DNA from: an uncultured Acidobacteriota bacterium
Lineage (GTDB): Bacteria; Acidobacteriota; Thermoanaerobaculia; Multivoradales; UBA5704
DNA: 64,000 nucleotides
Direction of reading: 5' to 3'
Assembly: GCA_963700145.1 (NCBI GenBank)
Contig: OY969474.1
Coordinates: 2,208,001-2,272,000, forward strand
Below are positions 44,153 through 57,463 of this stretch, one piece after another. The translations under genes and the position numbers were made by a program. How positions within the stretch are numbered: the first letter of the stretch is position 1; every line of letters begins with the position of its first letter. The notes beneath the pieces are model-generated. The model made no database searches. It saw only the letters and a list, made by a program, of their open reading frames with translations, and had not been told where the DNA came from.

Positions 44153-44398
44153 CTACTCGGGGACCTTCTCCAAAGGAATGCCTCGGCCGGCGCGAATGCT
44201 CTGGCGAGCCGCTTCGATCCGCGCCAGGAAACGCGGGTCGGACTGCAGGCGATACTCGAACCAGTCGTCCTCGGACTTGAAGCCGACGAGGACACCGGCG
44301 GGCTTGCCGTGGCGCGTGATGACGATCTCTTCCCCCTCGGCCAAGCGCAAGTAGCGGGAGAGGTCGCCCTTGACGTCGGACAGCGCAACTTTCTTCAT
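44153..44398 (-). CDS. Phd/YefM family antitoxin (no adjacent toxin)
   Basis: MKKVALSDVKGDLSRYL...IVITRHGKPAGVL. Confidence 0.88.
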   Translation of the reverse strand: MKKVALSDVKGDLSRYLRLAEGEEIVITRHGKPAGVLVGFKSEDDWFEYRLQSDPRFLARIEAARQSIRAGRGIPLEKVPE

Positions 44399-44591
44399 TC
44401 TGATTCTCCCAGCTCCGCGAGCCAAACTGACGCTTGCGACTTGGGCACGGTAGGCGGCAAATCCAAGCCGTTTGACCGGCGAAGCTGCCTGCTCGGCCGG
44501 CGGACCGCTCAGGCAAACCCGCGAGAGAGCGGTTTCCCGGGCGGACCCCGCTGGCCGGCGGGCGGATGGACGGCATTTTCGCCGAAATGGA

Positions 44592-44784
44592 GCAGGTACG
44601 CGGACGATTGGGCTGGGTACGCCGCGGACCTGGCCCATTCGTCGGAGTATGGAGCCCATCGTCCGCGTACCCAGCCTAATCGCCGCCATACCCGGGCCAA
44701 TCGCCAGCGTATCCTGCCCAATCGCCGCCGTACCCAGCCCATTCGTCCGCGTACCCTGCCCAATCGCCGCCGTACCTGTCCCAT
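44592..44784. repeat. 21-bp tandem repeat (~7 units, 44634-44784) with an inverted copy at 44592-44621
   Basis: Consensus CCCAATCGYCGCCGTACCCAG; GCAGGTACGCGGACGATTGGGCTGGGTACG is its reverse complement. Confidence 0.85.
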
Positions 44785-44787
44785 CCA

Positions 44788-45423
44788 CTACCAGGCGACT
44801 CCCGGGCTCCGCCGCAGATACGCGTCGCTCGTCACCTGGTCGAGCATGAAGGCCGCGACGTCGGCGCGTGCGATCCGCACCGTCCAGAGCCAGTTGCCGA
44901 CCTTCGGCCCGTGCTTGTACTTCCCGCGCGCCGGGCGGTTCCTGAGCACGCCGGGGCGCACGATGACCCAGTCGAGGGCGCTGCCGCGGATCACGCGCTC
45001 CTGGCGGACCTTGTCGTAGAAGTAGAAGGGCAGGATGAAGACCCCGATGAAGAGCGTGTAGTAGAGGCCCATCCGCCCGAAGCTGTCGCCGACGCCGAGC
45101 GCGGTCTCGCAGACCAGCCGGCGCACCCCTTCCCGCTCCATCGCGCGGACCAGGTTGCGGGTCCCCTCGGAAAGGATGCGCGTCGGATAGAACCACCGCT
45201 TGTGCCCGAGGGCGGAGAGGACGGCGTCCTGCCCGCGCACGGCGGCCTCGACCGACGCCGGGTCCAGCACGTCGCCGCGCGTAACGGTCAGGCGCTCGTG
45301 CTGGACGTCGAGCTTGGCGGGCCGCCGCGCGAAGGCCGTCACCTCATGTCCCCGCTCCAGCGCCTGGCGCACCAGCTCGCGGCCCGTCCCGCCGGTCGCC
45401 CCGACGATCAGAAGCTTCGCCAT
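44788..45423 (-). CDS. NAD(P)-binding oxidoreductase (flavin reductase/BVR-B-like SDR)
   Basis: IVGATGGTG, GDVLD, DWVIVRP, IARADVA. Confidence 0.9.
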   Translation of the reverse strand: MAKLLIVGATGGTGRELVRQALERGHEVTAFARRPAKLDVQHERLTVTRGDVLDPASVEAAVRGQDAVLSALGHKRWFYPTRILSEGTRNLVRAMEREGVRRLVCETALGVGDSFGRMGLYYTLFIGVFILPFYFYDKVRQERVIRGSALDWVIVRPGVLRNRPARGKYKHGPKVGNWLWTVRIARADVAAFMLDQVTSDAYLRRSPGVAW

Positions 45424-45487: not shown

Positions 45488-46072
45488 GTGGACGAACCAT
45501 CGCCAGGCAGCGTCACGCGCTTCCTCGTCGCATGGCGCGGCGGAGACGAGCAAGCGCTCGAGCGGTTGCTGCCGCTGGTCTACGGCGAGCTGCGCCGGCT
45601 GGCCGGCCGCTACCTGAACCGGGAGCGGGAGGGCCACACCCTCGAGACCCACGACCTCATCCACGAAGCCTTCCTGCGCCTGGTCGACCAGCGGCAGGTG
45701 GACTGGCGCAATCGTGCCCATTTCTTCGCCATCGCCGCGCAAATGATGCGGCGCATCCTGGTCGATCACGCCCGCCGGCGCGGCTACCGCAAGCACGGCG
45801 GCGACGTGCGGCGGCTGATGCTCGACGACGTGCTCGACGTCGCCGCCGAGCGCGACATGGATCTGGTGGCGCTCGACGACGCGCTGACCGAGCTGGCCCG
45901 GGTCGACCCGGAGCTGGCGAAGGTCGTCGACCTGCGCTTTTTCGGCGGCCTCGACCACGACGAGATCGCCGTCGCGCTCGGCGTCTCCAATCCCACCGTC
46001 CGGCGGCGCTGGCGGGTGGCCAAGGCCTGGCTCTACCGCCGGCTCGCGGGCGAGGAGCCGGATGGCGACTGA
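45488..46072 (+). CDS. ECF sigma factor, Ser/Thr-kinase-associated type (TIGR02999-like)
   Basis: VYGELRRLA, HTLETHDLIHEAFLRL, RAHFFAIAAQMMRRILVDHAR, LRFFGGL, AKAWL. Confidence 0.92.
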   Translation: MDEPSPGSVTRFLVAWRGGDEQALERLLPLVYGELRRLAGRYLNREREGHTLETHDLIHEAFLRLVDQRQVDWRNRAHFFAIAAQMMRRILVDHARRRGYRKHGGDVRRLMLDDVLDVAAERDMDLVALDDALTELARVDPELAKVVDLRFFGGLDHDEIAVALGVSNPTVRRRWRVAKAWLYRRLAGEEPDGD

Positions 46073-48574
46073 GCGCTGGCGCGAGATCGAAGCGCTCTTC
46101 GCCGAGGTCGCGGCGCTGCCGGCCGCGGAGCGCACGCCCCACCTGACGCGCCGCTGCGGCGGCGACGAGGACCTGCGGCGGGAGGTCGAGTCCCTCCTCG
46201 CCGCCGACGCCGCGGCCGGCGACTTCCTCGAGCAGCCGGCGGTGCCGCCCGCCGACGTCTCGCCGCCGCCCTCGGCGGTCGGACGCCGGATCGGTCCCTA
46301 CGCCGTCGAGCGCCTCCTCGGCGCGGGCGGCATGAGCACCGTCTACCTCGCCGTGCGCGCCGACGAGGAGTACCGCCAGCAGGTCGCCATCAAGGTCTTC
46401 GGCTACGGCGCCGACCGCGCCGACTTGGTCGAGCGCTTCCGCGCCGAGCGGCAGATTCTGGCCTCCCTCGACCACCCCAACATCGCCCGCCTGCTCGACG
46501 GCGGCACCACCGAGGACGGGCTGCCGTACCTGGTCATGGAGTACGTCGAGGGCCTCCCCATCGACCGCTACTGCGACGAGCGCGGCCTAGGCCTCGACGC
46601 GCGCATCGACCTCTTCCGCCAGGTCTGCGCGGCGGTGCAGTACGCGCACCAGAAACCTGGTGGTCCATCGCGACATCAAGCCGTCGAACATTCTGGTGAC
46701 CGCCGACGGCGTGCCGCATCTCCTCGACTTCGGGATCGCCAAGCTCCTGGCCGGCAGCTCCCTGCCGCCGGCGGCCGCGGCCACGACGACTGGCCAGCGG
46801 CTGATGACGCCGCACTACGCGAGCCCCGAGCAGGTCGAAGGCCGGCCGGTCAACACCGCGAGCGACGTCTACTCCCTGGGCGTCCTGCTCTACGTGCTGC
46901 TGACCGGCCGCCTGCCCTACCGCTTGGAGGCCGAGCGCGTGGACGCGGTCGAGCGCGCGGTCGTCGAGCAGGAGCCGGAGCGGCCGAGCGCGGCGGTCGC
47001 CGCGCGGACGCTCGCCCGCCGGCTCGCCGGCGACCTCGACAACATCGTGCTGACGGCGCTGCGCAAGGAGCCGGCGCGGCGCTACGCCTCGGTCGAGCTG
47101 CTGGCCGAGGACCTGCGGCGCCACCGCACGGGCCTGCCGGTCCTGGCGCGCCCGGCGACCGTCGGCTACCGGGTGGGCAAGTTCGTGGGCCGCCATCGCC
47201 TGGGGGTCGGCGCCGGTTCTGGACCGGGGCGCGGCCCAGATCACCAACGAGCTCGCGGAGCAGCCGGACGTTCAGGCGGCGCTCGCCGTCACCATTGCCC
47301 GGGCCTACGGCGGCCTCGGCCTCTACGATCGCGCCCAGCCCCTCCTCGAGCGCTCGCTCGCCTTGCGGCGCCGGGTCTTCGGCGCCGCGCACCCGGAGGT
47401 GGCCGAGACGCTCCACGAGCTCGGCGTCCTGCATTGGGCGCGCGGCGAGCTGGACCTCGCCGAGGCCACCCTCCGCCAGGCGCTCGCGATGCGCCGGGCG
47501 CTTCTGGACGCCAGCGACCCCGCGGTGGCCGAAACTCTCAACGCGCTGGGCTTGGTGCTCGTCTTCAAGGCGCGGTTCGACGCCGCCGAGCCGTTGCTCC
47601 GCGAAGCCCTCGCCCTCAATCGCGCGCGGTACGGCGACGACCATGAGGAGGTGGGGAGCAACCTGGTCAATCTCGGCCTCCTGACGAAGCAAAAGGGAGA
47701 CCTCGCCGCGGCCGAAGCCCTCTACCGCGAGGGCCTGGCGATCTTCCGCCGGCTCTTGGGCGGGGCACACCCCCAGGTCGTCATCCAGCTCAACAACCTG
47801 GCGGTGCTGCAATACGAGCGCGGGGACTACGCCGCCGCCGAGGCGAGCTACCGCGAGATGCTGCCCGTGGCGCATCGAGTCTACGGCCGGGAGCACCCCC
47901 AGGTCGCCCTCTACCTCCACAACCTCGCGGCCGTGCTCTCCTGGCGCGGCAAGAACGACGAGGCCGAGCGCCTGGAGCGCGAGTCGCTGGCGATGCGGCG
48001 CAAGCTCCTGGGCGGTGAGCACGAGCAGGTCGGGATGGGCCTCAACATGCTCGCCAAGATCCTGGAGGAGAAGGGCGAGCTCGGCCGCAGCCGGCCGATC
48101 TACGAAGAGTCGCTGCGCATCCAACGCCAGGCCCTCGGCGAGGAGCATCCGCGAGTGGCTGCCGTGCTGGCCAATCTCGCCGGCCTGCTCGCCCAGCAGG
48201 GAGATCCCGCGGCCGCCGAGCCCCTGGCCCGACAGGCCCTCGCCATCCGCCGCCGGGCGCTCGGCGAGGCGCACCCGGACGTCGGGTCCTCGCTCGCGCT
48301 GGTCGGATCGCTCCGGCTCGCCCGCGGCGCACCGGCGGAGGCTGAGCCCCTGCTGCGCCAGGGCCTGGGAGTGCTCCGGGCGGCGCTCTCGGACTCCCAC
48401 TGGCGGACCGCCGAGGCGCAGAGCCTGCTCGGGGAGTGCCTGGCGGCGCGAGGGAAGACGGCGGAGGCCGAGCGGCTCATGACCGCCGGCTACGAGACCC
48501 TGGTGAAGACCCGGGGAGTGGAAAACCCCAAGACCGTGGCCGCGCGTCAACGGCTCGCCAAGCTGAACGGTTGA
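46062..48574 (+). pseudogene. Ser/Thr kinase-TPR receptor, disrupted (frameshift plus internal deletion)
   Basis: GAGGM, VAIK in one frame; extra A at 46653-46655; HRDIKPSN, DFG, YASPEQ in second frame; jump at ~47215 into TPR frame (VLDRGAAQI..., HPxVA..LNNLA repeats). Confidence 0.85.
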
Positions 48575-48622
48575 TCACTTTCGCCGCGGTTTCCCGCGTT
48601 AGGGGCGAAAGGAGACCGATCC

Positions 48623-48679
48623 ATGAAGACCAAGACCCACGTCAAGGCCGGCGGTATCACGGCGTCCGGCGCCGACTAG
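48623..48679 (+). CDS. Double-glycine micro-peptide precursor MKTKTHVKAGG-ITASGAD
   Basis: AAAGGAGA RBS; leader homologous to the four opposing peptides; TAG at 48677-48679. Confidence 0.82.
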   Translation: MKTKTHVKAGGITASGAD

Positions 48680-48755
48680 GCTCCCGAGAGCCGGCAGGAA
48701 GGTTTCGAGGAGGGGCGGAGGCGCGCTCGCGCCGCCGCGCTCGCCCATCGGACAG

Positions 48756-48806
48756 TCAGTCGGTGAGCAGCCTGCCGCCGGCCTTGACGGTCGTCTTGAC
48801 ACGCAT
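48756..48806 (-). CDS. Double-glycine micro-peptide precursor MRVKTTVKAGG-RLLTD
   Basis: GGAGGTGA RBS; 16 codons plus TGA; array unit 4. Confidence 0.88.
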   Translation of the reverse strand: MRVKTTVKAGGRLLTD

Positions 48807-48855
48807 CGCGATCACCTCCCTTCGCTTGGATTCCAGGCAGCGTTCCGCCGCCGGG

Positions 48856-48906
48856 TCAGTCGCTGAGCAGCACGCCTCCGGCCTTGACGGTCGTCTTGAC
48901 ACGCAT
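48856..48906 (-). CDS. Double-glycine micro-peptide precursor MRVKTTVKAGG-VLLSD
   Basis: GGAGGTGA RBS; 16 codons plus TGA; array unit 3. Confidence 0.88.
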   Translation of the reverse strand: MRVKTTVKAGGVLLSD

Positions 48907-48958
48907 CGTGATCACCTCCCTTCGCCAGGTTTTTCCTCACAACGTCTTTCGCCGCGGA

Positions 48959-49009
48959 TCAGTCGCCGAAGATGATGCCTCCGGCCTTGACGGTCGTCTT
49001 GACACGCAT
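48959..49009 (-). CDS. Double-glycine micro-peptide precursor MRVKTTVKAGG-IIFGD
   Basis: GGAGGT RBS; 16 codons plus TGA; array unit 2. Confidence 0.88.
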   Translation of the reverse strand: MRVKTTVKAGGIIFGD

Positions 49010-49058
49010 CGCATTTACCTCCCTTCGCAAGGACTCCAGGCAGCGTTTCGCCGCCGGA

Positions 49059-49109
49059 TCAGTCGCCGATGAGCACGCCTCCGGCCTTGACGGTCGTCTT
49101 GACACGCAT
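49059..49109 (-). CDS. Double-glycine micro-peptide precursor MRVKTTVKAGG-VLIGD
   Basis: GGAGGTGA RBS; 16 codons plus TGA; array unit 1, 82 bp after the ABC exporter stop. Confidence 0.88.
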   Translation of the reverse strand: MRVKTTVKAGGVLIGD

Positions 49110-49191
49110 CGCGGATCACCTCCCCTCCGCCCAGATTTTTCGATCGCTGATCCCTGAGTCCCCGCGGGACCGGAATCCGTTCAATCCGGCC

Positions 49192-51321
49192 CTACGGGTG
49201 GGCGATGACGAGGAGCGTCGGCGCGCGCCGCAGGACGCAGGAGAGCGCCTGCCGCAGGCTCTCCGGGTCGAGGGCGGCGAAGCTCTCGTCGAGGACGACC
49301 AGCTCGGCCTTCTGGAGCAGCGCGCGGGCGATGTAGAGCCGGCTCTTCTCGCCGTGCGAGAGCTGCCAGCCCGACTCGCCGACCATCTGCAGCAGGCCGG
49401 CGGGCATGCGGTCGAGGACGTCGCCGAGCCCCAGCTCGCGGCAGACCGCCTCGGCCTCCTCGACGTCGCCCGGCCGCGGCGGCCAAGCGCGGCCCATCAG
49501 CAGGTTGAAGGCGAAGGTGTCGGTCAGGACGTGGTTCTCCTGGAACTGCGGCGCCGCCACCGCCCGCCGCCGCCACCCCTCGGCGCCGAGCGAGTGCCGG
49601 TCCAGGCCGTCGAGCAGCAGCAGCCCCGACTGCGGCAGGCGCAGGCCGGTGAGCAGCGCGGCGAGCGTCGATTTGCCGCCGCCCGAAGGCCCTTCGAGCA
49701 GCAGCCGCTCGCCCTGCCGCACCGCCAGCGAGGCGCCGGCAACGGCGAGGTCGGCGCGCTCGCCGTAGCGGAAGCCGAGGTCGTGCGCCTCGAGGACGAC
49801 CCGCGAGCCGCCGGCGCCTGCCTGCGCCATCGGGATCAAGGCCGCTCCCGGCGCCGACGCCTCGGAGCGCGCGGCGGCGCGGAAGATCGGCGCCACCTGG
49901 TCCCACGCCACCGCCGCCTCCGACAGGTCGGCCAGCCCGCGGACCATCTTCCACAGCGCCCAGTACGCGAAGAGGGCGCCGCCCAAGGCGACGGCGAGGC
50001 TCCCCGACGACGCCGTGCCGGCGACGAACGGCCGGGCGAGCGCGAGGAGGCTCACCAGCAGCCAGCCGCGCGGCACCAGCACCCGCAGCAGCGCCGCCCG
50101 CCGGTCGAGTTCCGCCGAGAGGTCGAGGTAGCGCTCCAGCTCGCCGTCCTCGCGCTCGTGCCAGCGCTCGGCGCTCTGCTGCGCCAGGCGCGTGCGGTGC
50201 CCGACCATCTGCTCGACCAGGTCGTGCGTCATCTCCAGCCGGGCCGCGGTCCAGACGCGCCTTTGCTCGAGGTACCGCCAGCCGAGCCAGAGCGCGAAGG
50301 CGACCCAGGCGAGGAGCGAGAGGGCGTGCGGCCAGCCCCCGGCGCCGGCGGCGAGGACCGGCAGCGCGAGGAGGACCTCGGCGAAGGTGATCACGCCGAC
50401 GTGCGCCCCGGTCAGCGCCAGGAACTCCAGGGCCTCGGCGTTCAGGATGCGGCCGAGGAGCTGGCCGGCGCCCTGGTGGCGCGTCTCCTCGGGCGCCATG
50501 CGCAGGGCGCCCACCAGCAACCGGCGCTTGAAGAGCCGCCCGGCGCGCGCCATCAGCACGCCCGCCGACCAGAGCTCCAGGGCGCGGAACGGGATGACGG
50601 TCAGCTGCAGCAGCACCCAGGCGGTGACCCAGGCGGGATCGAGCCGCCCCCGGAGGACGCCGAGGCCTAGCACCCACCACGACAGGAGGAGCAGCGCGTG
50701 CTGCGCCATGTGCGCGCCGACCAGGACGGCGGCGCGCCCCGGCAGCCCTGCCCGCCGCGCCGCCGCCCAGAAGCTGCCGCCGGGCGGCAGGTCGAGGAGC
50801 CAACAGCCGCCGATCCGCCGCTCGGCGAGCCGCTCGGCGAGGAGCGCCTCGCGCGCCCGCTCCCGCCGGCGCGGCGGCACCGCCGCCTCGTCGAGCAGGC
50901 GGTCCACCTCGGGGCCGAGGCCGGCGTCGAGATCGCCGCGCAGCGCATCGCGCAGCGCGGCCACCGAGACCCGCCGCGGGCGATGATCGCGGCCGAGCAC
51001 GCGGACCTGCCGGCGGCCGCCGGCGAGGAGGGCGAGGAAGCCGCCCGCGGCCCCCGGCAGGCGGAGCAGCGCCGGCGCGGCGTGGCCGACCAGCGCCGCT
51101 ACCTCGCCGTAGGCGGCCTCGACGGGCTCGGCCTCGAGCCCCATCGCCGCCGCCGCGGCGCCGATCCAGCGGTCCAGCTCCTCGACCGAGACCTCCGGGG
51201 GCGGCTCCGGCAGGTCGAGCTTGCCGGGTGCGAGCCCGGCGGCGCGGGCCAGGGCGGAGAGCGCCTCGCCGAGCCGATCGGCCGGCCAGACGAGCGCGTC
51301 GAGGTCGGGCCGCGCCTTCAC
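49192..51321 (-). CDS. ABC exporter with degenerate C39-like N-terminal domain
   Basis: GTG overlapping upstream TGA; GLEAEPV..PALL.L without catalytic Cys/His; GPSGGGKST, LSHGEKSR, LDES. Confidence 0.88.
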   Translation of the reverse strand: MKARPDLDALVWPADRLGEALSALARAAGLAPGKLDLPEPPPEVSVEELDRWIGAAAAAMGLEAEPVEAAYGEVAALVGHAAPALLRLPGAAGGFLALLAGGRRQVRVLGRDHRPRRVSVAALRDALRGDLDAGLGPEVDRLLDEAAVPPRRRERAREALLAERLAERRIGGCWLLDLPPGGSFWAAARRAGLPGRAAVLVGAHMAQHALLLLSWWVLGLGVLRGRLDPAWVTAWVLLQLTVIPFRALELWSAGVLMARAGRLFKRRLLVGALRMAPEETRHQGAGQLLGRILNAEALEFLALTGAHVGVITFAEVLLALPVLAAGAGGWPHALSLLAWVAFALWLGWRYLEQRRVWTAARLEMTHDLVEQMVGHRTRLAQQSAERWHEREDGELERYLDLSAELDRRAALLRVLVPRGWLLVSLLALARPFVAGTASSGSLAVALGGALFAYWALWKMVRGLADLSEAAVAWDQVAPIFRAAARSEASAPGAALIPMAQAGAGGSRVVLEAHDLGFRYGERADLAVAGASLAVRQGERLLLEGPSGGGKSTLAALLTGLRLPQSGLLLLDGLDRHSLGAEGWRRRAVAAPQFQENHVLTDTFAFNLLMGRAWPPRPGDVEEAEAVCRELGLGDVLDRMPAGLLQMVGESGWQLSHGEKSRLYIARALLQKAELVVLDESFAALDPESLRQALSCVLRRAPTLLVIAHP

Positions 51322-54023
51322 CCTTCCTCCGCCTCGGTCAAGCGGCCGCGCTCCATCCGCAGCCGCCGCCAGACCGTGCTCTGCCAGAGCCCCGACCGCA
51401 CGTCGCCTTCGGCGGCCAGGAGCGCGGCGTAGCGCGACCCCGGTTGCGCGGCGAGGCGCTCGGGCGGGCCGTCCTCGACGATGCGGCCGTTCTCGACGAC
51501 GAGGGCGCGCGCGAAGCCCAGCGTCTCGCCGACGTCGTGGGTGACGCAGAGCAGCGTCGCGCCCTGCCAGAGACGGCGGGCCCGCGCCAGCAGCTCGCGC
51601 CGCTGCTCGCGGTCGAGACCGCGGAACGGCTCGTCGAGAAGGACCAGGCGCACCCCGGGCCGCAGCAGCGCGCGCGCCAGGCGCACTCGCTGGCCCTCGC
51701 CGCCGGAGACCAGGCCGCCGCCTTCGCCGAGCGGCGTCTGCAGGCCCTCCGGCAGCTTGCGCAGCACGGCCACCAGGTCGGCGGCGCCGATCGCCTGGTC
51801 GAGCGGCAGGCCGAGGCCCTCTGCCGCGCCGTAGCGGAGGTTTTCGAGCAGCGGCCGGTTCCAGAGCTGCACCGCCGGATCGACCCAGGCGGTCTCGCGG
51901 CGCAGCGCCTGCAGCCGCTCGCCGCCGAGCGGCTCGCCGTCCACCAGCACGCGGCCCGCGGCCGGCCGGTGCCAGCCGAGGAGAGTCCCGAGGAGGCTCG
52001 ACTTGCCGGCGCCGGAGGGGCCGACGATGGCGACGTGCTCGCCGGGCGCGATCGCGGCGCCGATGCCGGCGAGGATCGTGTGCCCGCCGGCGCGCACGCC
52101 GACGTCCTCCCAGACGATGCCGGCGGCGGGCGCGGGCGACGACGTCAGAGAAGACGGCGCGGCGGCGTGCGGTCCGGCCTCCTCGGCCTCCTCCGGCGCG
52201 CCGAGCGGCTCGAGCAGGCGCAGGGCGACGTTGCGGTGCGAGGGGTACTGGGTGGCGATCGCCAGGATCAGCATCTGCCCGAGGCTCAGGACCTTGAGCC
52301 CCCAGTAGACGAGCAGCAGGATGCCGCCGTCGAGCCCGCGGCGGGCGAGGTGATCGACGAGCAGGACGATCACCATCGAGACCATGGCGATCTGCACCGC
52401 CGTGTCCGCCGCCACCTCGGCGCGGCGCAGGTGGAGGTAAGAGCGCCCCCACTCGACGAGCAGCCCCTCGTGCTGCCGCCGCACCGCCGTCTGCGCGCCG
52501 TGGGTGCGGATCGGGAAGAGGCCGAGGAGCGCGTCGAGGTAGAAGCGCGACAGTGCGCCGGCGTGGTTGCGCACCCGCAGGTCCCACTCCTCGAGCCGCG
52601 GCAGCAGCACGAGCGGCACGCCGACCGCCAGCGCCGCAGCGACGGCGACGACCAGGAGGCTCCCCGGGTCGAGCCAGACGATGCCGGCCAGGGTGAAGAG
52701 CAGCTCGCAGGCGGTGCGCACGAACCACTCGCCGAGGTCGGGCACCAGGCGGAGGCGGTGGACGCCGTGGCTGCGGTCGGCCATGTCGGAGGTCAGGCGG
52801 CTCTGGAAGTAGCGGTCGCCCAAGCGCGGCACCTTGCGCAGGAAGGCCATCCGCAGCCGCGCCTCGAGGTGCCGCCCCAGACGCTGCGCGCCGCGCACGA
52901 TCGGCAGGTCGAGGAGGAGGAAGAGGGCGACGACGGCGAACAGCATGCCGAGCGCCGCGGCCCGCTGGGCGCCGAGCCCAAGCGCCCGCGGCAGGTCGAA
53001 GAAGGCGCGGAAGAGGAGCGCCTCGACGACGACCCCGAGGCCGGCGACCAGCAGCGCCAGCGCCAGCGCGCCCGGCGCGAAGCGGCCGCCGGCGGCGAGC
53101 AGGCGGAGCAGCTCGCGGCCCGGCCGCGCCGGCGGCTCGGCGAGGGCGGCCGCCAGCTCGGGCGAGAGCGGGCTCGGCGCGGCGGCTGCGGCATCGGACT
53201 CCGGTCCGCGGCGGCCGCGGACGCGCACCAGGACGGCGCCGCGCAAGAGCACCTGCTCCTCGCCGTCCGCGCCCGGCGGGCCGGGCCGCACGGACCACCA
53301 GGCCTCGGGCACGGCCTCTGTCGCCGTCTCTCCACCGTCGCGGCAGCGAGCGAGCAGTGAGCGCAGCAGTCGCCCGGCCTCGCCGCCTTTGGCGAGCCCG
53401 CCCGCGGCGACGAGTGAACGGGTCATGCGCACGCAAGCGTCGAGCGCGGCGAGCGCGCGCCAGCCGGGATCGGCCAGTGCCGCCGCCAGCAGCTCGCCGG
53501 CCTCGGCGTCCGAGATGCCGAGCTCGCCCAGGAACGCCCGCTGAACGTCGAGGAAGTCGGCCGAGCCGGCCCATTCGCGGAAGGCCGCCGCCGGCACCGC
53601 CTGCCGGTGGCGGTAGAGCTCGCCGAGGAGCCGGCGCGCCGTCGTCCAACGGCGCCCGGTGGCCGGGTCCATCACCTGGACGAGCGGGCCGTGGCGGCGC
53701 CAGACGACGATGAAGTGGGTCAGCCCGCTCGGGTGGCGGACGACGACGATCGCCGGCAGGTTGTGCGCCGCCGGCGCCAGCAGGTGGTCCGCCGGCACCA
53801 CGACCTGCTCGGCCTCCAGGCCGAGCTGCGCCGCGACCTCCTCCATGGTGTCGATCGAGGTGCCGTCGAGATCGATCTGGCAGGCCTCGCGCAGGCGGCC
53901 GTAGCTCACCGGGATGGCGAAGCCTTCGAGCAGCGACTTGAGGGTCGCCGGCCCGCAGTCCATGGCCGAGGTCTGGACGACCTCGGGGGCGAGGAAGGAG
54001 CGGCGGTCCGGCGGGCGGGACAT
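51318..54023 (-). CDS. Peptidase-containing ABC transporter (C39 peptidase + TMD + ATPase)
   Basis: Start MSRPPDRR; QTSAMDCGPA (Gln, Cys), THFIVV (His), VMDPATG (Asp); GPSGAGKSS, VSGGEGQR, LLDEP. Confidence 0.92.
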   Translation of the reverse strand: MSRPPDRRSFLAPEVVQTSAMDCGPATLKSLLEGFAIPVSYGRLREACQIDLDGTSIDTMEEVAAQLGLEAEQVVVPADHLLAPAAHNLPAIVVVRHPSGLTHFIVVWRRHGPLVQVMDPATGRRWTTARRLLGELYRHRQAVPAAAFREWAGSADFLDVQRAFLGELGISDAEAGELLAAALADPGWRALAALDACVRMTRSLVAAGGLAKGGEAGRLLRSLLARCRDGGETATEAVPEAWWSVRPGPPGADGEEQVLLRGAVLVRVRGRRGPESDAAAAAPSPLSPELAAALAEPPARPGRELLRLLAAGGRFAPGALALALLVAGLGVVVEALLFRAFFDLPRALGLGAQRAAALGMLFAVVALFLLLDLPIVRGAQRLGRHLEARLRMAFLRKVPRLGDRYFQSRLTSDMADRSHGVHRLRLVPDLGEWFVRTACELLFTLAGIVWLDPGSLLVVAVAAALAVGVPLVLLPRLEEWDLRVRNHAGALSRFYLDALLGLFPIRTHGAQTAVRRQHEGLLVEWGRSYLHLRRAEVAADTAVQIAMVSMVIVLLVDHLARRGLDGGILLLVYWGLKVLSLGQMLILAIATQYPSHRNVALRLLEPLGAPEEAEEAGPHAAAPSSLTSSPAPAAGIVWEDVGVRAGGHTILAGIGAAIAPGEHVAIVGPSGAGKSSLLGTLLGWHRPAAGRVLVDGEPLGGERLQALRRETAWVDPAVQLWNRPLLENLRYGAAEGLGLPLDQAIGAADLVAVLRKLPEGLQTPLGEGGGLVSGGEGQRVRLARALLRPGVRLVLLDEPFRGLDREQRRELLARARRLWQGATLLCVTHDVGETLGFARALVVENGRIVEDGPPERLAAQPGSRYAALLAAEGDVRSGLWQSTVWRRLRMERGRLTEAEEG

Positions 54024-54031
54024 GCGGGCGG

Positions 54032-55198
54032 CTAGTCGGCGGCGGCGGGGCGGTCGAAGACCTTGCCGACCGTGCGCAGGACGAGGACGGCGGGCGCCAC
54101 CCGCTCGACCTCCACCTCCGCCGTGCCCGGCAGGCCGTGCTGCAGCGGCAGCCGGGAGCGGCGGTCCGGCCGCAGGGCGAGCTCGACGCGGATGCGCCCG
54201 TCGCGCGGCTCGCTGGCGACGCGGGCGACGCGCGCGGCCAAGTGCCCGTACTGCGCCGAGGGGAAGCCACTCAGGACGATCCGCGCCGGCTGCCGCGGCC
54301 GGATCCGGCCGAGGGCGGAGGCGGGCGCGAACTCGGCGATCCCCTTGAGGTCGCCCGCCGGCACCACCATCCCGAGCTGCTCGCCGGCGGCGACGACCGA
54401 GCCGACCCGCACCGCCGCGATCTCCGCGACGCGGCCGGCGACTGGCGCTCGGATCGCGCGCAATCCGACGTCGCGCTCCAGGCGCCGGACGGCGGCGCCG
54501 GCGGCGGCGGCCTGCCCGGCGAGCAGCGCCAGCTCGCGCTCCAGCTCGTCGACGTCGCCGCGCCGCTCGCCCTCGGTGCTCCGCTCCTCGTAGCCGAGGC
54601 GGTCGAGGGTGCGGCGCAGGGCATCGGCGGCGGCGCGCCGCTGCTCGGCCGCCGAGCGCGCCCTCTCCGCCTCGGCCGCCGGCACCAGCCCCTGGGCGAG
54701 GAGGCGCTCCTGCCGGTCGGCCTCCTGCTGCGCCAGCCGCGCCGCGGCCTCCGCCTCCCGGGTCTTGGCGAGCGTCTCCTCGATGCCGGCGCGGGAGGCG
54801 CCGAGCCGGCCGGCCAGCGACCGCCCGCCGGCCGCGATCTGCTGGCGCAGAGCGGCGATCTGCCCGGCGAGAGCGTCCCGCCGCGCCCGCTCCTCGTCGA
54901 GCCGCGCCCGCGGCTCCTCCGCCTCCAGCTCGATCAGGACTTGGCCCTGGCGCACCCGCTGCCCGAGCGCCGCCCGCACCGCCGCCACCCGCCCCTCGAC
55001 CGGCGCCGCCAGCGGATGCGCCTCGCGCCCCACCGCCAGCCAGGCGCGGTCCGTGACCTCGTACACCGACACCCGCCCGCGCACGAACCACACCCCCCAG
55101 GCGCCGAGCAGCAACAGCGCCGGCACCAACCCGGCGATCCACCGCCGGTGGCCGTCAACCTCAAGGGCGCGCAACGTGCGCGAGAACGGGCTGGGCAT
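54032..55198 (-). CDS. HlyD family membrane-fusion (periplasmic adaptor) protein
   Basis: N-terminal TM, APVEGRV..GQ.V..GQVL, coiled coil, IRAPVAGRV, LQHGLPG. Confidence 0.9.
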   Translation of the reverse strand: MPSPFSRTLRALEVDGHRRWIAGLVPALLLLGAWGVWFVRGRVSVYEVTDRAWLAVGREAHPLAAPVEGRVAAVRAALGQRVRQGQVLIELEAEEPRARLDEERARRDALAGQIAALRQQIAAGGRSLAGRLGASRAGIEETLAKTREAEAAARLAQQEADRQERLLAQGLVPAAEAERARSAAEQRRAAADALRRTLDRLGYEERSTEGERRGDVDELERELALLAGQAAAAGAAVRRLERDVGLRAIRAPVAGRVAEIAAVRVGSVVAAGEQLGMVVPAGDLKGIAEFAPASALGRIRPRQPARIVLSGFPSAQYGHLAARVARVASEPRDGRIRVELALRPDRRSRLPLQHGLPGTAEVEVERVAPAVLVLRTVGKVFDRPAAAD

Positions 55199-55354
55199 GC
55201 GAGTGCGGCAGCGTAGCACCGGCCAAGGTCAGCCCTTCGAGTCACCGCTCGTCGTGGGACGGCTCCAGAGAAGAATTGACCGCTTCGACGCGCGAGAATA
55301 GACTTGGCTATCCGTTGTCGTCATCGTCGCGTGCGCACACGCCGGGAGGCTCAC

Positions 55355-57463
55355 ATGATCTTGGTCAAGACGTCGCATCGCCGCGGCCTGTTTGCGTCGG
55401 CATGTGTGATCGCGTGTTTCTCGCTTGGCGGCATCGCGCTCGCGGGCGAGATTGATGGCGACATCGCCAACACGAACCCGATCAGTTGCGGAAGCAACCC
55501 GGCCGCCTCGATCGTCAAGGTGTGCAACACCGTGAAGAAGGTCTTTTCCTCGATCACCTGTCCGAGCGATAAGAATTCGTGTGTCAAGCCAAAGCGGGAG
55601 ATCTTCACAGGCCTGACCGTCGAGGGCGCGACGCCCACCAATATCAAGCCGTGGAACGGACAAGGCGGCGGCGGCGAGGTTTTCCAACTGGTCGGCGTCT
55701 GCTTGATGCGCGACCTGGCCGTCACACCCATGAAGTCGCATGCGGAGGCGACCATTGAGGTCGGGCTGACAAGCGCGACGGTCTCTGCGGACGGCCTCGT
55801 CTCTTACGGGAGGTTCGACAAGACCGATCTGACCAAACTGCGCTTCGAGGGCTTCCACAGCTTGCGCGCGCATGCGCCGATCATCGGCGACATCGACATT
55901 TTCACGCAGCCCTTCTCGCTGCAGACGGTCTCGCAGTCCCTCCAGGGCCAAGGGTTGAAGGTCGGCGGCTACGACGTCTATGGCGCACAGGCGCTCGAGC
56001 TCGAAGCGGTGGGCGGAGCCCAGAGGTTCGACTTCGCCCTCGATGCCATCAAGATCGTGACGCCCTACGGGACGATCTCGCCCCAGCCCCATGTCGGATT
56101 CGCGCAGGTCCTCGGCTGGAGCATGTCGCCCTATGGCGGCGCCAGCACGATGCTGCTCAATCCGGGCGCGTACCAAGTCACCGACGTCTATGGCCGCCTG
56201 GGCGGACAGAAGGTCGCGAGCGGCCTCAACGTCGTCAAGACGACAAGCGGCCCTGGCGGGCCGGGCTGCATCCCCGTCCAAATCAGTCCCGACAAGATCT
56301 GCCCCAATCCGGTTGGTTGGGACAGCCAAGTTCTCCTCGGCTCGCGCAACGTCAACCTCGATACGTCCATTGCGGTGAACACGCCTTGGACAGCGCCGCC
56401 CGGCGTCGCCTTTCCGGATCGGCCGGACGCCCAACCGCAGCGCGCACGCGGCGATGCCGAGAAGACACCCGGCGGTGCTGCGTCGGCCGGTATCAAGATC
56501 GAATACACGCCGCCCATTCCGCTGCCGGAGATACCGGCCCCTGTCGCGTTGACGGCGAAGCTGAGCGTGTTCGTCGATCCCAATATCGTCGTGCTCTACG
56601 GAAGCCAGTACAATCTGTGGAACGGACAAGTCGGCACATGGCTGCCTGGAGGCGTGCCGTTCGGCGCGCCGACCTTGGGTACGCCGGTCGACGTGCAAAG
56701 CCTACAGAGCATGGCGATCTATGCCGCCTCGACGGTCTATGGCCGCTTCGCGCTCGATGCCGGGGTCGACATCGTGCTCCACGTGCACATCACGCTGCCC
56801 AAGGTGTGCAGCCCCTTCGACTCCGACGAGTGCTGGCCGGACGACATCGACTTCGACATTGTCGATCTCCATCCGCGTACGGCGTTTCTGGAGAGCAAAG
56901 CCGGTGACACGGAGCCTTCGGAGCAAGCCGCCTTTGCGCTCGTCGACTCGCAAAACTTCGTCAAGACCCAGAAACTCTTCAGTATCTTCACACCGCTGAA
57001 TGGCACGCCCACCGACGGCGTCGCCTACATCGAGCAGTGCCTGAAGCAGGATGCGCCGGCGGCGCAAGATCCGCCCGAGAATCCCTACGTTCCGGGCGAT
57101 CCCCAAGCCCTCGTTGAAGTGATCGAGATGCCCTGCAATGTCTGCCTCGGCATGCCGGACATCAAGTATCAATACCCTCTCGAGTGGGACCCGGTCACCG
57201 CCCACGTGACGAAGTCGGAGACCCGCACGCAGGAAGGCTTCGGCATCAAGCAGCTGCCAGAGGTGACAGACGGGCTTGAGCCGGGTGATCAATGGCTATG
57301 CGCCTGGGTCCCGCAACTCGAGCGGGTCGTGAACTTGGGCTGCTACGACCAATGCCGGGTCAACAAGGCGACCAACACGTTCACGGTGATCGCCTCCGCC
57401 AAGACACTTTGGGCAGAAGGCAAGTTCACCGGCGAATCGTTGCCGCCCCACGGCTGCCTCTAA
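55355..57463 (+). CDS. Large secreted Cys-rich protein of unknown function
   Basis: GGAGG RBS; signal MILVKTSHRRGLF...IALA; 18 Cys; lower GC than flanks. Confidence 0.8.
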   Translation: MILVKTSHRRGLFASACVIACFSLGGIALAGEIDGDIANTNPISCGSNPAASIVKVCNTVKKVFSSITCPSDKNSCVKPKREIFTGLTVEGATPTNIKPWNGQGGGGEVFQLVGVCLMRDLAVTPMKSHAEATIEVGLTSATVSADGLVSYGRFDKTDLTKLRFEGFHSLRAHAPIIGDIDIFTQPFSLQTVSQSLQGQGLKVGGYDVYGAQALELEAVGGAQRFDFALDAIKIVTPYGTISPQPHVGFAQVLGWSMSPYGGASTMLLNPGAYQVTDVYGRLGGQKVASGLNVVKTTSGPGGPGCIPVQISPDKICPNPVGWDSQVLLGSRNVNLDTSIAVNTPWTAPPGVAFPDRPDAQPQRARGDAEKTPGGAASAGIKIEYTPPIPLPEIPAPVALTAKLSVFVDPNIVVLYGSQYNLWNGQVGTWLPGGVPFGAPTLGTPVDVQSLQSMAIYAASTVYGRFALDAGVDIVLHVHITLPKVCSPFDSDECWPDDIDFDIVDLHPRTAFLESKAGDTEPSEQAAFALVDSQNFVKTQKLFSIFTPLNGTPTDGVAYIEQCLKQDAPAAQDPPENPYVPGDPQALVEVIEMPCNVCLGMPDIKYQYPLEWDPVTAHVTKSETRTQEGFGIKQLPEVTDGLEPGDQWLCAWVPQLERVVNLGCYDQCRVNKATNTFTVIASAKTLWAEGKFTGESLPPHGCL

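Follow-up and report, generated by a model that had tools for sequence, protein, structure and literature searches.

Several described systems bear on how bacteria mature, export and read short peptides. Transporters of the ATP-binding cassette (ABC) type that contain a peptidase (PCATs; ComA/ComC, PCAT1/CtA, CvaAB/microcin V and LahT) act on precursors with a double-glycine leader, which canonically has 15-30 residues with hydrophobic side chains at positions -4, -7 and -12. Here we analyze a locus in a 64,000-nucleotide stretch of the genome of an uncultured Acidobacteriota bacterium (contig OY969474.1, positions 2,208,001 to 2,272,000; the whole stretch is called the window, and positions without another label refer to it), in which a C39-type peptide exporter adjoins five micro open reading frames (ORFs) of 16 or 18 residues, an extracytoplasmic function (ECF) sigma factor and the remains of a Ser/Thr kinase gene with tetratricopeptide repeats (TPRs). 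The micro-ORFs belong to a large, unnamed family. We read the locus, with moderate confidence, as a cassette that matures and exports peptides, is dedicated to substrates of its own and is genetically linked to a sigma/kinase pair.

The RRNPP systems (Phr/Rap, PapR/PlcR and NprX/NprR) signal with ribosomally made peptides of 5-7 residues that stay unmodified and stem from the C-terminal end of a small precursor. These peptides exit by Sec, return by Opp and are read by cytoplasmic, one-component receptors in which TPRs are fused to a helix-turn-helix (HTH) domain or a phosphatase. In diderm bacteria, a PCAT-type exporter has been implicated in transporting small regulatory peptides in the PatS/HetN and HetC system of Nostoc and the RaxX and RaxABC system of Xanthomonas; PatS is a micro-ORF product whose C-terminal pentapeptide is active, and RaxX is a longer, sulfated peptide. 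In PMC10986499, HetC is proposed as the exporter of PatS/HetN, its substrate is given as still unidentified, and no leader-bearing gene lies beside hetC. In the regulatory field, sigma factors of group ECF43 are switched on through phosphorylation by adjacent Hanks-type kinases, one of which, PknS, carries TPRs in the periplasm for which no signal is known (PMC13147305).

The locus shares with the PCATs an ABC exporter with an N-terminal C39 domain containing Cys, His and Asp, an HlyD adaptor in the style of diderm microcin systems, substrate genes that adjoin the exporter, and a leader that ends in G-G. It differs in that its leader has only 11 residues and is rich in Lys, where the usual consensus is longer and amphipathic, and in that its cores are only 5-7 residues long. 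Its exporter pairs two unlike halves, a dead C39-like domain being present in one and a 190-residue insert in the other, the C39-ABC protein, and its precursors fall outside the known precursor families of Pfam and NCBIfam. It resembles the RRNPP systems only in the peptide size of 5-7 residues and the use of TPRs. Its TPRs are joined C-terminally to a kinase and a membrane helix in the intact orthologs, a PCAT is the predicted exporter, and among the ORFs checked neither an Opp nor an HTH-TPR gene was seen at the locus. In concept, the closest counterparts in diderms are PatS/HetC and RaxX/RaxABC; no sequence relation of the locus to PatS/HetN/HetC or RaxX/RaxABC was found. What is new is the micro-precursor family with its leader, the exporter of unlike halves, and the recurrent coupling of both to ECF, kinase and TPR genes.

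Organization of the locus

The window has a G+C content of 71.6%, and its host genome, designated G000, is one contig of 5.46 Mb. G003, G004, G012 and G019 are relatives, G004 being of the same genus; L numbers denote fetched loci, of which L021 belongs to G004 and L156 to G012. The first-pass annotation had described two convergent operons, with hlyD, a C39-ABC gene, a second ABC gene and four 16-residue ORFs on one strand, and an ECF sigma factor, a kinase-TPR gene and an 18-residue ORF on the other. Both are present:

45488-46072, plus strand: ECF sigma factor, ECF43-like, intact, 194 residues with a GTG start (PF07638, TIGR02999)
46062-48574, plus strand: Ser/Thr kinase-TPR gene, disrupted, in three reading frames (Pkinase, TPR_10/TPR_12)
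48623-48679, plus strand: class-B micro-ORF of 18 residues, leader MKTKTHVKAGG and core ITASGAD (MKTKTHVKAGGITASGAD), 49 nucleotides past the TPR stop
48756-49109, minus strand: class-A array of four 16-residue micro-ORFs with a period of about 100 nucleotides, made up of the next four entries
49059-49109, minus strand: class-A ORF, leader MRVKTTVKAGG and core VLIGD, start codon at 49109
48959-49009, minus strand: class-A ORF, same leader and core IIFGD, start codon at 49009
48856-48906, minus strand: class-A ORF, same leader and core VLLSD, start codon at 48906
48756-48806, minus strand: class-A ORF, same leader and core RLLTD, start codon at 48806
49155-49183, minus strand: candidate promoter TGAAC-N18-GACTCA, 45 nucleotides 5' of the first class-A ATG
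49192-51321, minus strand: second ABC half-transporter, 709 residues (PF00005), with an N-terminal domain modelled as a dead C39-like domain
51318-54023, minus strand: C39-peptidase ABC transporter, 901 residues (PF03412, PF00005)
54032-55219, minus strand: HlyD-family periplasmic adaptor, 395 residues (PF13437, PF13533)

The micro-ORFs belong to a widespread family

The 11-residue leader M-[RK]-x-K-T-x-V-K-A-G-G is common to all five window ORFs, as are strong ribosome-binding sites, which in the four class-A ORFs are Shine-Dalgarno sites resembling GGGAGGTGA. The leader departs from the canonical length and hydrophobic pattern, having Lys at position -4, Thr at position -7, and Val at both -5 and -9. 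A whole-genome scan found no KAGG-type ORFs besides these five in the 5.46 Mb of G000. Class-A copy number is four in G000 against two in G004 and G003, with the frame kept, and metagenome contigs skip 102-266 nucleotides within positions 48744-49192, so that copy number differs between related strains. The spot 3' of the kinase-TPR gene holds class-B ORFs in G004 and G003, and both a class-A and a class-B ORF in L066.

The suggestion that the leader be sought in six-frame translations of other genomes proved productive: such ORFs occur at 119 loci or more, in several phyla, and co-occur with the exporter. Of 401 genomes sampled from the phylum, 2, with G000 among them, matched a degenerate DNA pattern for the leader, and the reversed control pattern matched none. 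A stricter KAGG pattern, applied to one genome per species, gave at least 119 loci, on which all figures for listed loci below rest. By their record titles, these come from Acidobacteriota (Blastocatellia, Pyrinomonadaceae, Thermoanaerobaculia, Bryobacterales, Holophagales and Terriglobales), Planctomycetota (Pirellulaceae), Myxococcota, 'Deltaproteobacteria', Chloroflexota and Pseudomonadota (Pseudomonadales and others), and further from Gemmatimonadota, Rhodothermales and Actinomycetota; about 12 of the 119 are, by eye, unrelated longer proteins (in Bathyarchaeota and Oscillospiraceae, for example). There are 171 leader matches among the listed loci, and 159 of them (93%) have a Shine-Dalgarno-like motif, compared with 14.9% of all ATGs. 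Closed leader ORFs are short, 112 of 167 having no more than 20 residues against 17.3% at random open positions, and the core has 5-7 residues in 96 of the 131 ORFs of up to 30 residues.

The same type of ORF is found when the search starts from the exporter. Of 40 relatives from the same order, 13 have a C39-ABC ortholog, and about 8 kb was fetched on each side of 14 exporter-ortholog loci, three of which are short contigs. Small ORFs with the same kind of leader lie beside the exporter at nine of these 14 loci and at none of the other five; they include KAGG ORFs, which in one case stand between hlyD and the C39-ABC gene. The relatives also carry leader variants in which KAG is followed by A, S, L, P or V, for example five tandem MTVQTHLQAGARAQIVIIG-like ORFs. 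Longer forms exist as well: in multi-repeat precursors of 40-206 residues the motif KVKTxVKAGG recurs between NHNQT-containing segments in a multi-core-like layout (L099:1050-1376, L110:7452-7931, L119:2075-2695, L092:1185-1607 and others, from Blastocatellia, Bryobacterales and other groups).

The cores fall into classes that are linked to lineage. The two found in the window, [VIA][LIM][LIV][GSA]D and xxxTGAD, also occur in Pyrinomonadaceae and other Thermoanaerobaculia; others are FSWSN-like (Pseudomonadales), GxxW/FxG (Pirellulaceae), GPIMDPNG and QITNI. The peptides had first been described as ending in Asp, which is true of the window's two classes and not of many others.

It could be supposed that these repeats are an untranslated non-coding or cis-regulatory element, given that the ORFs are very short, tandem and intergenic. 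We give this explanation next to no credence: the amino acids of the leader are kept across phyla with varied codons, the Shine-Dalgarno sites are nearly always present, stops fall 5-7 codons past the leader at a rate well above chance, there are longer multi-repeat forms that keep the frame, and no Rfam family matches the locus at E values up to 1. The micro-ORFs instead look real and selected, and appear to form a large conserved family without a name. No Pfam or NCBIfam model covers any form of it (35-206-residue relatives, extended window ORFs or a TIGR01847-type signal), no description of the KAGG family or motif was found in article texts, the supplements being outside the reach of the search, and the two members present in the protein collection are unnamed or called 'hypothetical protein'; the family was thus aptly called undescribed. 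We judge it quite probable that the micro-ORFs encode genuine substrates of the exporter.

Three further sets of small ORFs were encountered. In G004, a 19-residue ORF, MRVKTHIKAGPEIINKGGS, with a Shine-Dalgarno site, lies 300 nucleotides upstream of hlyD (L021:6917-6976) and has no counterpart in the window. Basic, Cys-rich peptides of 35-37 residues, whose leaders begin in the same way and whose cores share a conserved ...KAGLAPTCGCGA..., are encoded upstream of hlyD in L026 (7191-7298), L028 (12821-12928) and L033 (7525-7638); they may be another class of product handled by this exporter family. Outside the window, G000 holds a second array of three tandem ORFs of 19-21 residues at 3,942,237-3,942,495 (L154:8238-8496), with strong Shine-Dalgarno sites and a KAG-A variant of the leader (MKV[QK]TNLKAGARHQIID(W/V/F)G...). 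It is divergent from a gene with FHA (phospho-Thr reader) and OmpR-type winged-helix domains and has fn3 and FG-GAP proteins downstream; no exporter is nearby.

The exporter is predicted to combine an active and an inactive peptidase half

The C39-ABC protein matches PF03412 over residues 15-130 at 66.4-69.4 bits (cut-off 22). Assigned by position in the usual C39 motifs rather than by structural superposition, its catalytic set is the oxyanion Gln17, Cys23 (MDCGPA), His103 (THFIVV) and Asp119 (VMDP). PCAT1 (4ry2) can be aligned with the membrane and ATPase domains, and the ATPase motif sets of both ABC proteins are intact. An insert of about 190 residues separates the peptidase from the membrane domain (residues 131-330; window 53034-53630, minus strand); it matches no Pfam family and has no PCAT1 counterpart in the alignment. 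In its C39 domain and catalytic residues, the features examined, the exporter appears to be a PCAT, in keeping with the C39 exporter originally proposed.

No Pfam family matched the first 215 residues of the second ABC protein. An AlphaFold model of this region, made on 24 orthologs (predicted local distance difference test score, pLDDT, 89.6), finds its best match in the C39-like domain 3b79 (probability 1.00, E 1.1e-3), followed by the peptidase domains of PCAT1 and ComA and by 3zua, the C39-like domain of HlyB. There is no Cys at the catalytic position. Because the C39 residues are intact in one ABC protein and the modelled C39-like domain of the other is inactive, the exporter most likely is a heterodimer in which the peptidase of one half is active and that of the other half dead. 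The HlyD adaptor scores 78 bits against TIGR01843, below the cut-off.

The NHLP/Nif11 cassette, which was among the better-scoring peptide-export matches, likewise consists of an HlyD-like protein, a C39-ABC protein and a second ABC protein without an active peptidase. Against the models of this cassette (TIGR03794, TIGR03796 and TIGR03797), the three proteins of the locus nevertheless stay far under the family cut-offs (157.6 against 853.3, 105.6 against 709.4 and 46.4 against 156.2), its substrates lack the NHLP or Nif11 leader domains, and modifying enzymes do not accompany it. Judged by these models, the exporter falls outside the NHLP-type equivalogs.

Exporter, sigma factor and kinase genes recur beside the micro-ORFs

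Parts of the exporter trio lie within an 8-kb block at 45 of the 119 listed loci, in at least six phyla, and the C39 N-terminus itself at 22. By our own estimate, the one trio that tblastn found in G000 would be touched by about 0.3% of 8-kb blocks placed at random in that genome. The other 74 listed loci are without an exporter part in blocks that are arbitrary cuts, many of them from short contigs. Together with the nine of 14 exporter-ortholog loci, these counts bear out the proposed association of the ORFs with the transporter. When ORFs of at least 90 residues at the listed loci were clustered by similarity, the clusters comprised ABC proteins (45 loci), kinase/TPR proteins (26), HlyD (23), NHNQT precursors (15), PF07638 sigma factors (9) and a second ECF sigma family (6), the remainder being antisense shadows or sporadic genes. 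None of these clusters was a radical-SAM, YcaO, lanthipeptide or similar enzyme of peptides that are made on ribosomes and modified after translation (RiPPs), and no immunity-like gene recurred among them.

This absence bears on whether the ORFs could be RiPP precursors that are modified before export by enzymes encoded elsewhere in the genome. The leader-core layout, the tandem variable cores, the multi-core precursors and an exporter trio resembling the NHLP/Nif11 cassette would all suit such precursors, as would the Cys-rich 35-residue forms (...KAGLAPTCGCGA...) of some relatives. Still, no modifying enzyme was seen in the window locus or its flanks among the ORFs checked, the rest of the genome not being excluded, and none is among the recurrent neighbors at the listed loci, so the absence reported in the first-pass annotation holds for both; moreover, an 11-residue leader has little room for a second recognition site. 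We regard modification before export as very improbable.

A PF07638-type sigma factor at least 40% identical to that of the window is found at nine of the 119 listed loci, and kinase-domain matches within the 8-kb block at 17. Background rates per 8-kb block estimated from G000 are about 0.7% for sigma factors and 5% for kinases, and the enrichment is therefore clear for sigma factors and modest for kinases, with the reservation that metagenome-assembled genomes (MAGs) of one study are not independent and that other genomes hold more kinases. Gene order is varied. The order sigma factor, kinase-TPR gene, peptide gene or genes on one strand is seen in G000, G003, G004, G019, L066, L072 and L037; the sigma/kinase genes are divergent from a run of peptide gene, hlyD and C39-ABC in L112, L128 and L136; the sigma gene is directly upstream of hlyD in L110; and L099 has the same gene types in another order. 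In Pirellulaceae MAGs (L036, L046, L069 and L108), a different ECF sigma factor is divergent from the peptide arrays. G019 has a sigma/kinase-TPR ortholog (65-79% identical) followed by three class-A ORFs (MKIKANVKAGGVLIGD and two others) on another contig than its exporter, which is followed by a class-B ORF, and the kinase operon of L066 contains one ORF of each class. The peptide genes therefore belong to both modules, interchangeably. The association with kinase and ECF genes that had been predicted for other genomes is thus a recurrent adjacency, in several lineages and orders, without being obligatory, as G012 (below) illustrates.

Stand-alone proteins of about 380 residues of the TPR_10/12 type, with no signal peptide or membrane helix, are encoded between a precursor gene and hlyD at five loci (L136:5272-6447, L119:2794-3906, L057:788-1957, L044:2320-3285 and L129:6571-7506). 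They could be cytoplasmic partners of the precursors, and they are about 31% identical to the TPR part of the kinase. These proteins would accord with an intracellular role in which TPR domains take hold of the leader or the precursor and serve the exporter as a chaperone, an adaptor or a sensor of load, the kinase reporting precursor load or export status and not an extracellular signal. We think this improbable for the kinase: a 22-residue helix in its intact orthologs places the TPR part outside the cytoplasm, as for PknS in PMC13147305, and TPR_10/TPR_12 repeats are common, so that 31% identity is weak evidence of a common specificity. Co-folding of the stand-alone TPR protein of L136 with its 67-residue precursor, run without controls, scored 0.01 against a mark of 0.32 and speaks neither for nor against binding.

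The sigma factor is intact and the kinase gene is disrupted

The sigma factor scores 194.7 bits against PF07638 (cut-off 21.1) and 217.4 bits against TIGR02999 (cut-off 126.15), models that we infer to correspond to group ECF43. The protein is 99% identical to its ortholog in G004 and 96% identical to that in G003. Region 2.2 reads ...TLETHDLIHEAFLRL. The start of the kinase gene at 46062 overlaps the sigma stop at 46072, and an adjacent Hanks-type Ser/Thr kinase is a hallmark of ECF43 according to PMC13147305. The pairing of a PF07638/TIGR02999-type sigma factor with a Ser/Thr kinase is that of EcfK/PknS of Xanthomonas citri and EcfP/PknT of Vibrio parahaemolyticus, and the intact orthologs of the locus kinase have the same architecture of N-terminal extension, kinase, helix and TPRs as PknS, as described in PMC13147305. 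In gene pairing and kinase architecture, the regulatory pair seems on its sequence to fit the ECF43/Hanks-kinase type. Unlike the described pairs, its operon adds a micro-peptide gene and adjoins an exporter, and the kinase gene is a pseudogene in G000. Aligned by eye, the sigma factor also carries ETHD-LIHEAFLRL where ECF43 factors have an uncharged region 2.2 with the consensus QTTA and its conserved phospho-acceptor Thr (PMC13147305), with one Thr kept and one Asp present.

The kinase-TPR region reads in three frames, from 46062 to about 46654, to about 47214 and to 48574, with the N-lobe of the kinase domain in the first, the C-lobe in the second and TPR_10/TPR_12 in the third. Compared with the intact 898-residue gene of G004, there is one extra A at 46653, inside ...AHQ|NLVVHRD, and 191 nucleotides are missing at 47215 that encode a 22-residue hydrophobic helix and the linker that follows it. 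One metagenome contig, from X2, matches the window exactly, spans 46653 and has the extra base; X2 is a possible sample of origin, and the contig is not independent proof. Related-strain contigs in X1, X3 and X4 are without the extra base. Two contigs, in X1 and X4, stop aligning at 47209 and 47215, and the 191-nucleotide deletion is not a sequencing slip. The TPR part is 80% identical to G004 in protein, against 97-98% for the three exporter genes, and in DNA it is 81-88% identical against 92-93% for the kinase part. The frameshift, the 191-nucleotide loss and the lower TPR identity mark the kinase-TPR gene as a pseudogene in G000. What had been annotated as a kinase-TPR gene therefore has its kinase and TPR parts and is not a single open gene.

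The gene is intact in G003, G004, G012, G019 and L066, where about 80 extra residues at the N-terminus precede the kinase domain, and a single membrane helix and then the TPRs follow it. The single helix between kinase and TPRs means that the TPR part should be extracytoplasmic in these orthologs. The extracytoplasmic TPR kinase first envisaged for the window is accordingly a prediction for the intact orthologs; in G000 itself the helix is lost and the kinase broken. G000 has about 22-26 kinase-domain matches genome-wide and only four sigma/kinase pairs of the PF07638 type in its 5.46 Mb, three besides the pair of the locus. From its genes, the production arm in G000 looks intact, and the cognate sensing arm is lost, unless one of the three paralogous pairs of sigma factor and kinase stands in for it.

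A candidate promoter precedes the class-A array

A motif TGAAC-N18-GAC(T/A)NA lies 41-46 nucleotides 5' of the first class-A ATG at five loci, namely the window, L021 (G004), L158 (G003) and two from other Thermoanaerobaculia (L144 and L101). In its strict form it occurs once in the G000 genome. The 'AAC' -35 element is typical of ECF promoters, and we infer that TGAAC and GACTCA are an ECF-type -35/-10 pair. The motif was not found upstream of the sigma genes or hlyD and there is no second copy genome-wide, so no regulon is definable. Its conservation suggests that the array has its own signal; it does not show which sigma factor reads that signal.

Other features of the window

The genes flanking the locus, which encode a NAD-binding protein, a pyridoxal phosphate-dependent-type (PLP) enzyme, a phosphoenolpyruvate (PEP)-mutase-like protein and a strain-specific secreted protein, are unrelated to it. 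The last of these, an ORF of about 700 residues (given as 719) at 55304-57463 on the plus strand, has a signal-peptide-like start and is divergent from hlyD; it matches no Pfam family and has no relative in any fetched locus, the same-genus genome included, and we consider it unrelated to the peptide system. A Phd/YefM-type antitoxin domain match covers residues 267-307 of the ORF at 44153-45196 (minus strand), immediately upstream of the NAD-binding gene next to the sigma factor. A scan of 48400-49400 found no sigma-70 promoters and one terminator-like site, no more than in shuffled sequences, and for the hairpin that separates the convergent ORFs, folding was not better than in shuffled sequence (z = -0.41).

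A model for peptide maturation, export and sensing

We propose the following working model. The micro-ORFs would be translated into precursors with a nearly invariant 11-residue leader and a variable core of 5-7 residues. The heterodimeric ABC exporter, with its active C39 half and dead C39-like half, would recognize the leader, cut at A-G-G and, with the HlyD adaptor, expel short, unmodified cores from the diderm cell. By analogy with PCATs, which lends good support to export with cleavage of the leader, the leader would be bound by the C39 or C39-like domain and the exported product would be the core, or the core with one Gly. Expression would be tied to the ECF43-like sigma factor, which in intact relatives would be partnered by a membrane kinase with extracytoplasmic TPRs; the class-B gene is placed within the sigma/kinase operon, and the class-A array would be under its own conserved promoter-like motif. 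The neighborhood and the published ECF43 pairs suggest that the kinase would phosphorylate the sigma factor, and that the sigma factor would control the peptide genes, the exporter genes or both. The likeliest role of the peptides would be extracellular signaling or self-recognition that feeds back through the kinase/sigma pair. That the extracytoplasmic TPR domain binds the exported peptide is speculative. The complete circuit, in which a PCAT heterodimer frees 5-7-mers that a periplasmic TPR kinase binds, phosphorylating an ECF43-type sigma factor in a positive loop on the peptide genes, is put forward tentatively and is doubtful in its entirety. The gene content, conservation and linkages on which the model draws are direct observations.

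A number of points weigh against the model. The leader is atypical, with 11 residues and Lys at -4, and unlike the canonical consensus, so that its recognition by C39 would rest on analogy. Relatives with KAG-L, -P, -A, -S and -V mean that the cut may follow A-G, not G-G; the double-glycine cleavage proposed at first thus finds its A-G-G in all five window ORFs, while the G-G cut itself is doubtful. The cores of the multi-repeat precursors would keep the next leader unless a second protease acts, and no outer-membrane channel or component was seen among the ORFs checked at the locus. Many listed KAGG loci are without a kinase or sigma gene in the 8-kb block, and the enrichment of kinases over background is, by rough estimate, only 3-4-fold. 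The kinase gene is broken in G000, and the proposed sensor therefore cannot work here in the way suggested. Finally, G012 has a sigma/kinase ortholog (72-87% identical), no exporter ortholog by this query and no true peptide ORF; in the place of the peptide, behind the same conserved spacer, it has a secreted Cys-rich protein (L156:5700-6345). The coupling between sigma/kinase pair and peptide is therefore frequent, not obligatory.

G012 is also what would be expected if the peptides were exported effectors (competitor-directed, metal-binding or enzyme-inhibiting) and the ECF/kinase pair sensed something else, for instance envelope stress, competitors or predators, and merely switched production on, given that the pair is kept there with a different secreted product downstream. 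The diversity of cores between lineages (111 distinct cores among the 131 short ORFs of the listed loci) would fit an arms race too. Diderm PCAT systems classically export microcins, and the only studied TPR-kinase/ECF43 pair responds to amoeba predation and not to a peptide, according to PMC13147305. Unmodified linear 5-7-mers are, however, very short for antimicrobial action, no immunity-like gene recurs at the listed loci, and identical or near-identical cores (VLIGD, VLLSD/ALLSD and xxxTGAD) are kept in different families with different codons. An effector role is accordingly unlikely in our judgment, if worth keeping in mind.

Implications

Returning to the reading of the locus as an export cassette coupled to a sigma/kinase pair, its consequences depend on how much of the model holds. 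Genes of 16-18 codons escape annotation, and the 11-residue leader is a simple handle for finding them in thousands of genomes from poorly studied soil phyla. If the cores are exported as predicted, they would be a new substrate class, with a new recognition mode, for C39 exporters. The broken kinase beside an expanded peptide array makes G000 a natural loss-of-sensor variant for comparison with its intact relatives.

If the peptides are the signals of the kinase, the system would be an example of linear-peptide signaling in diderm bacteria, and they would be the first natural ligands for ECF43-associated kinases, whose activating signals are not known according to PMC13147305. The full circuit, if true, would be a peptide quorum-sensing or kin-recognition circuit of diderms assembled from parts not known to work together. 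It would come with a family of signaling micro-peptides across Acidobacteriota, Planctomycetota, Myxococcota, Chloroflexota and Pseudomonadota, in lineage-specific 'dialects' such as VLIGD, xxxTGAD, FSWSN, GxxWxG and QITNI.

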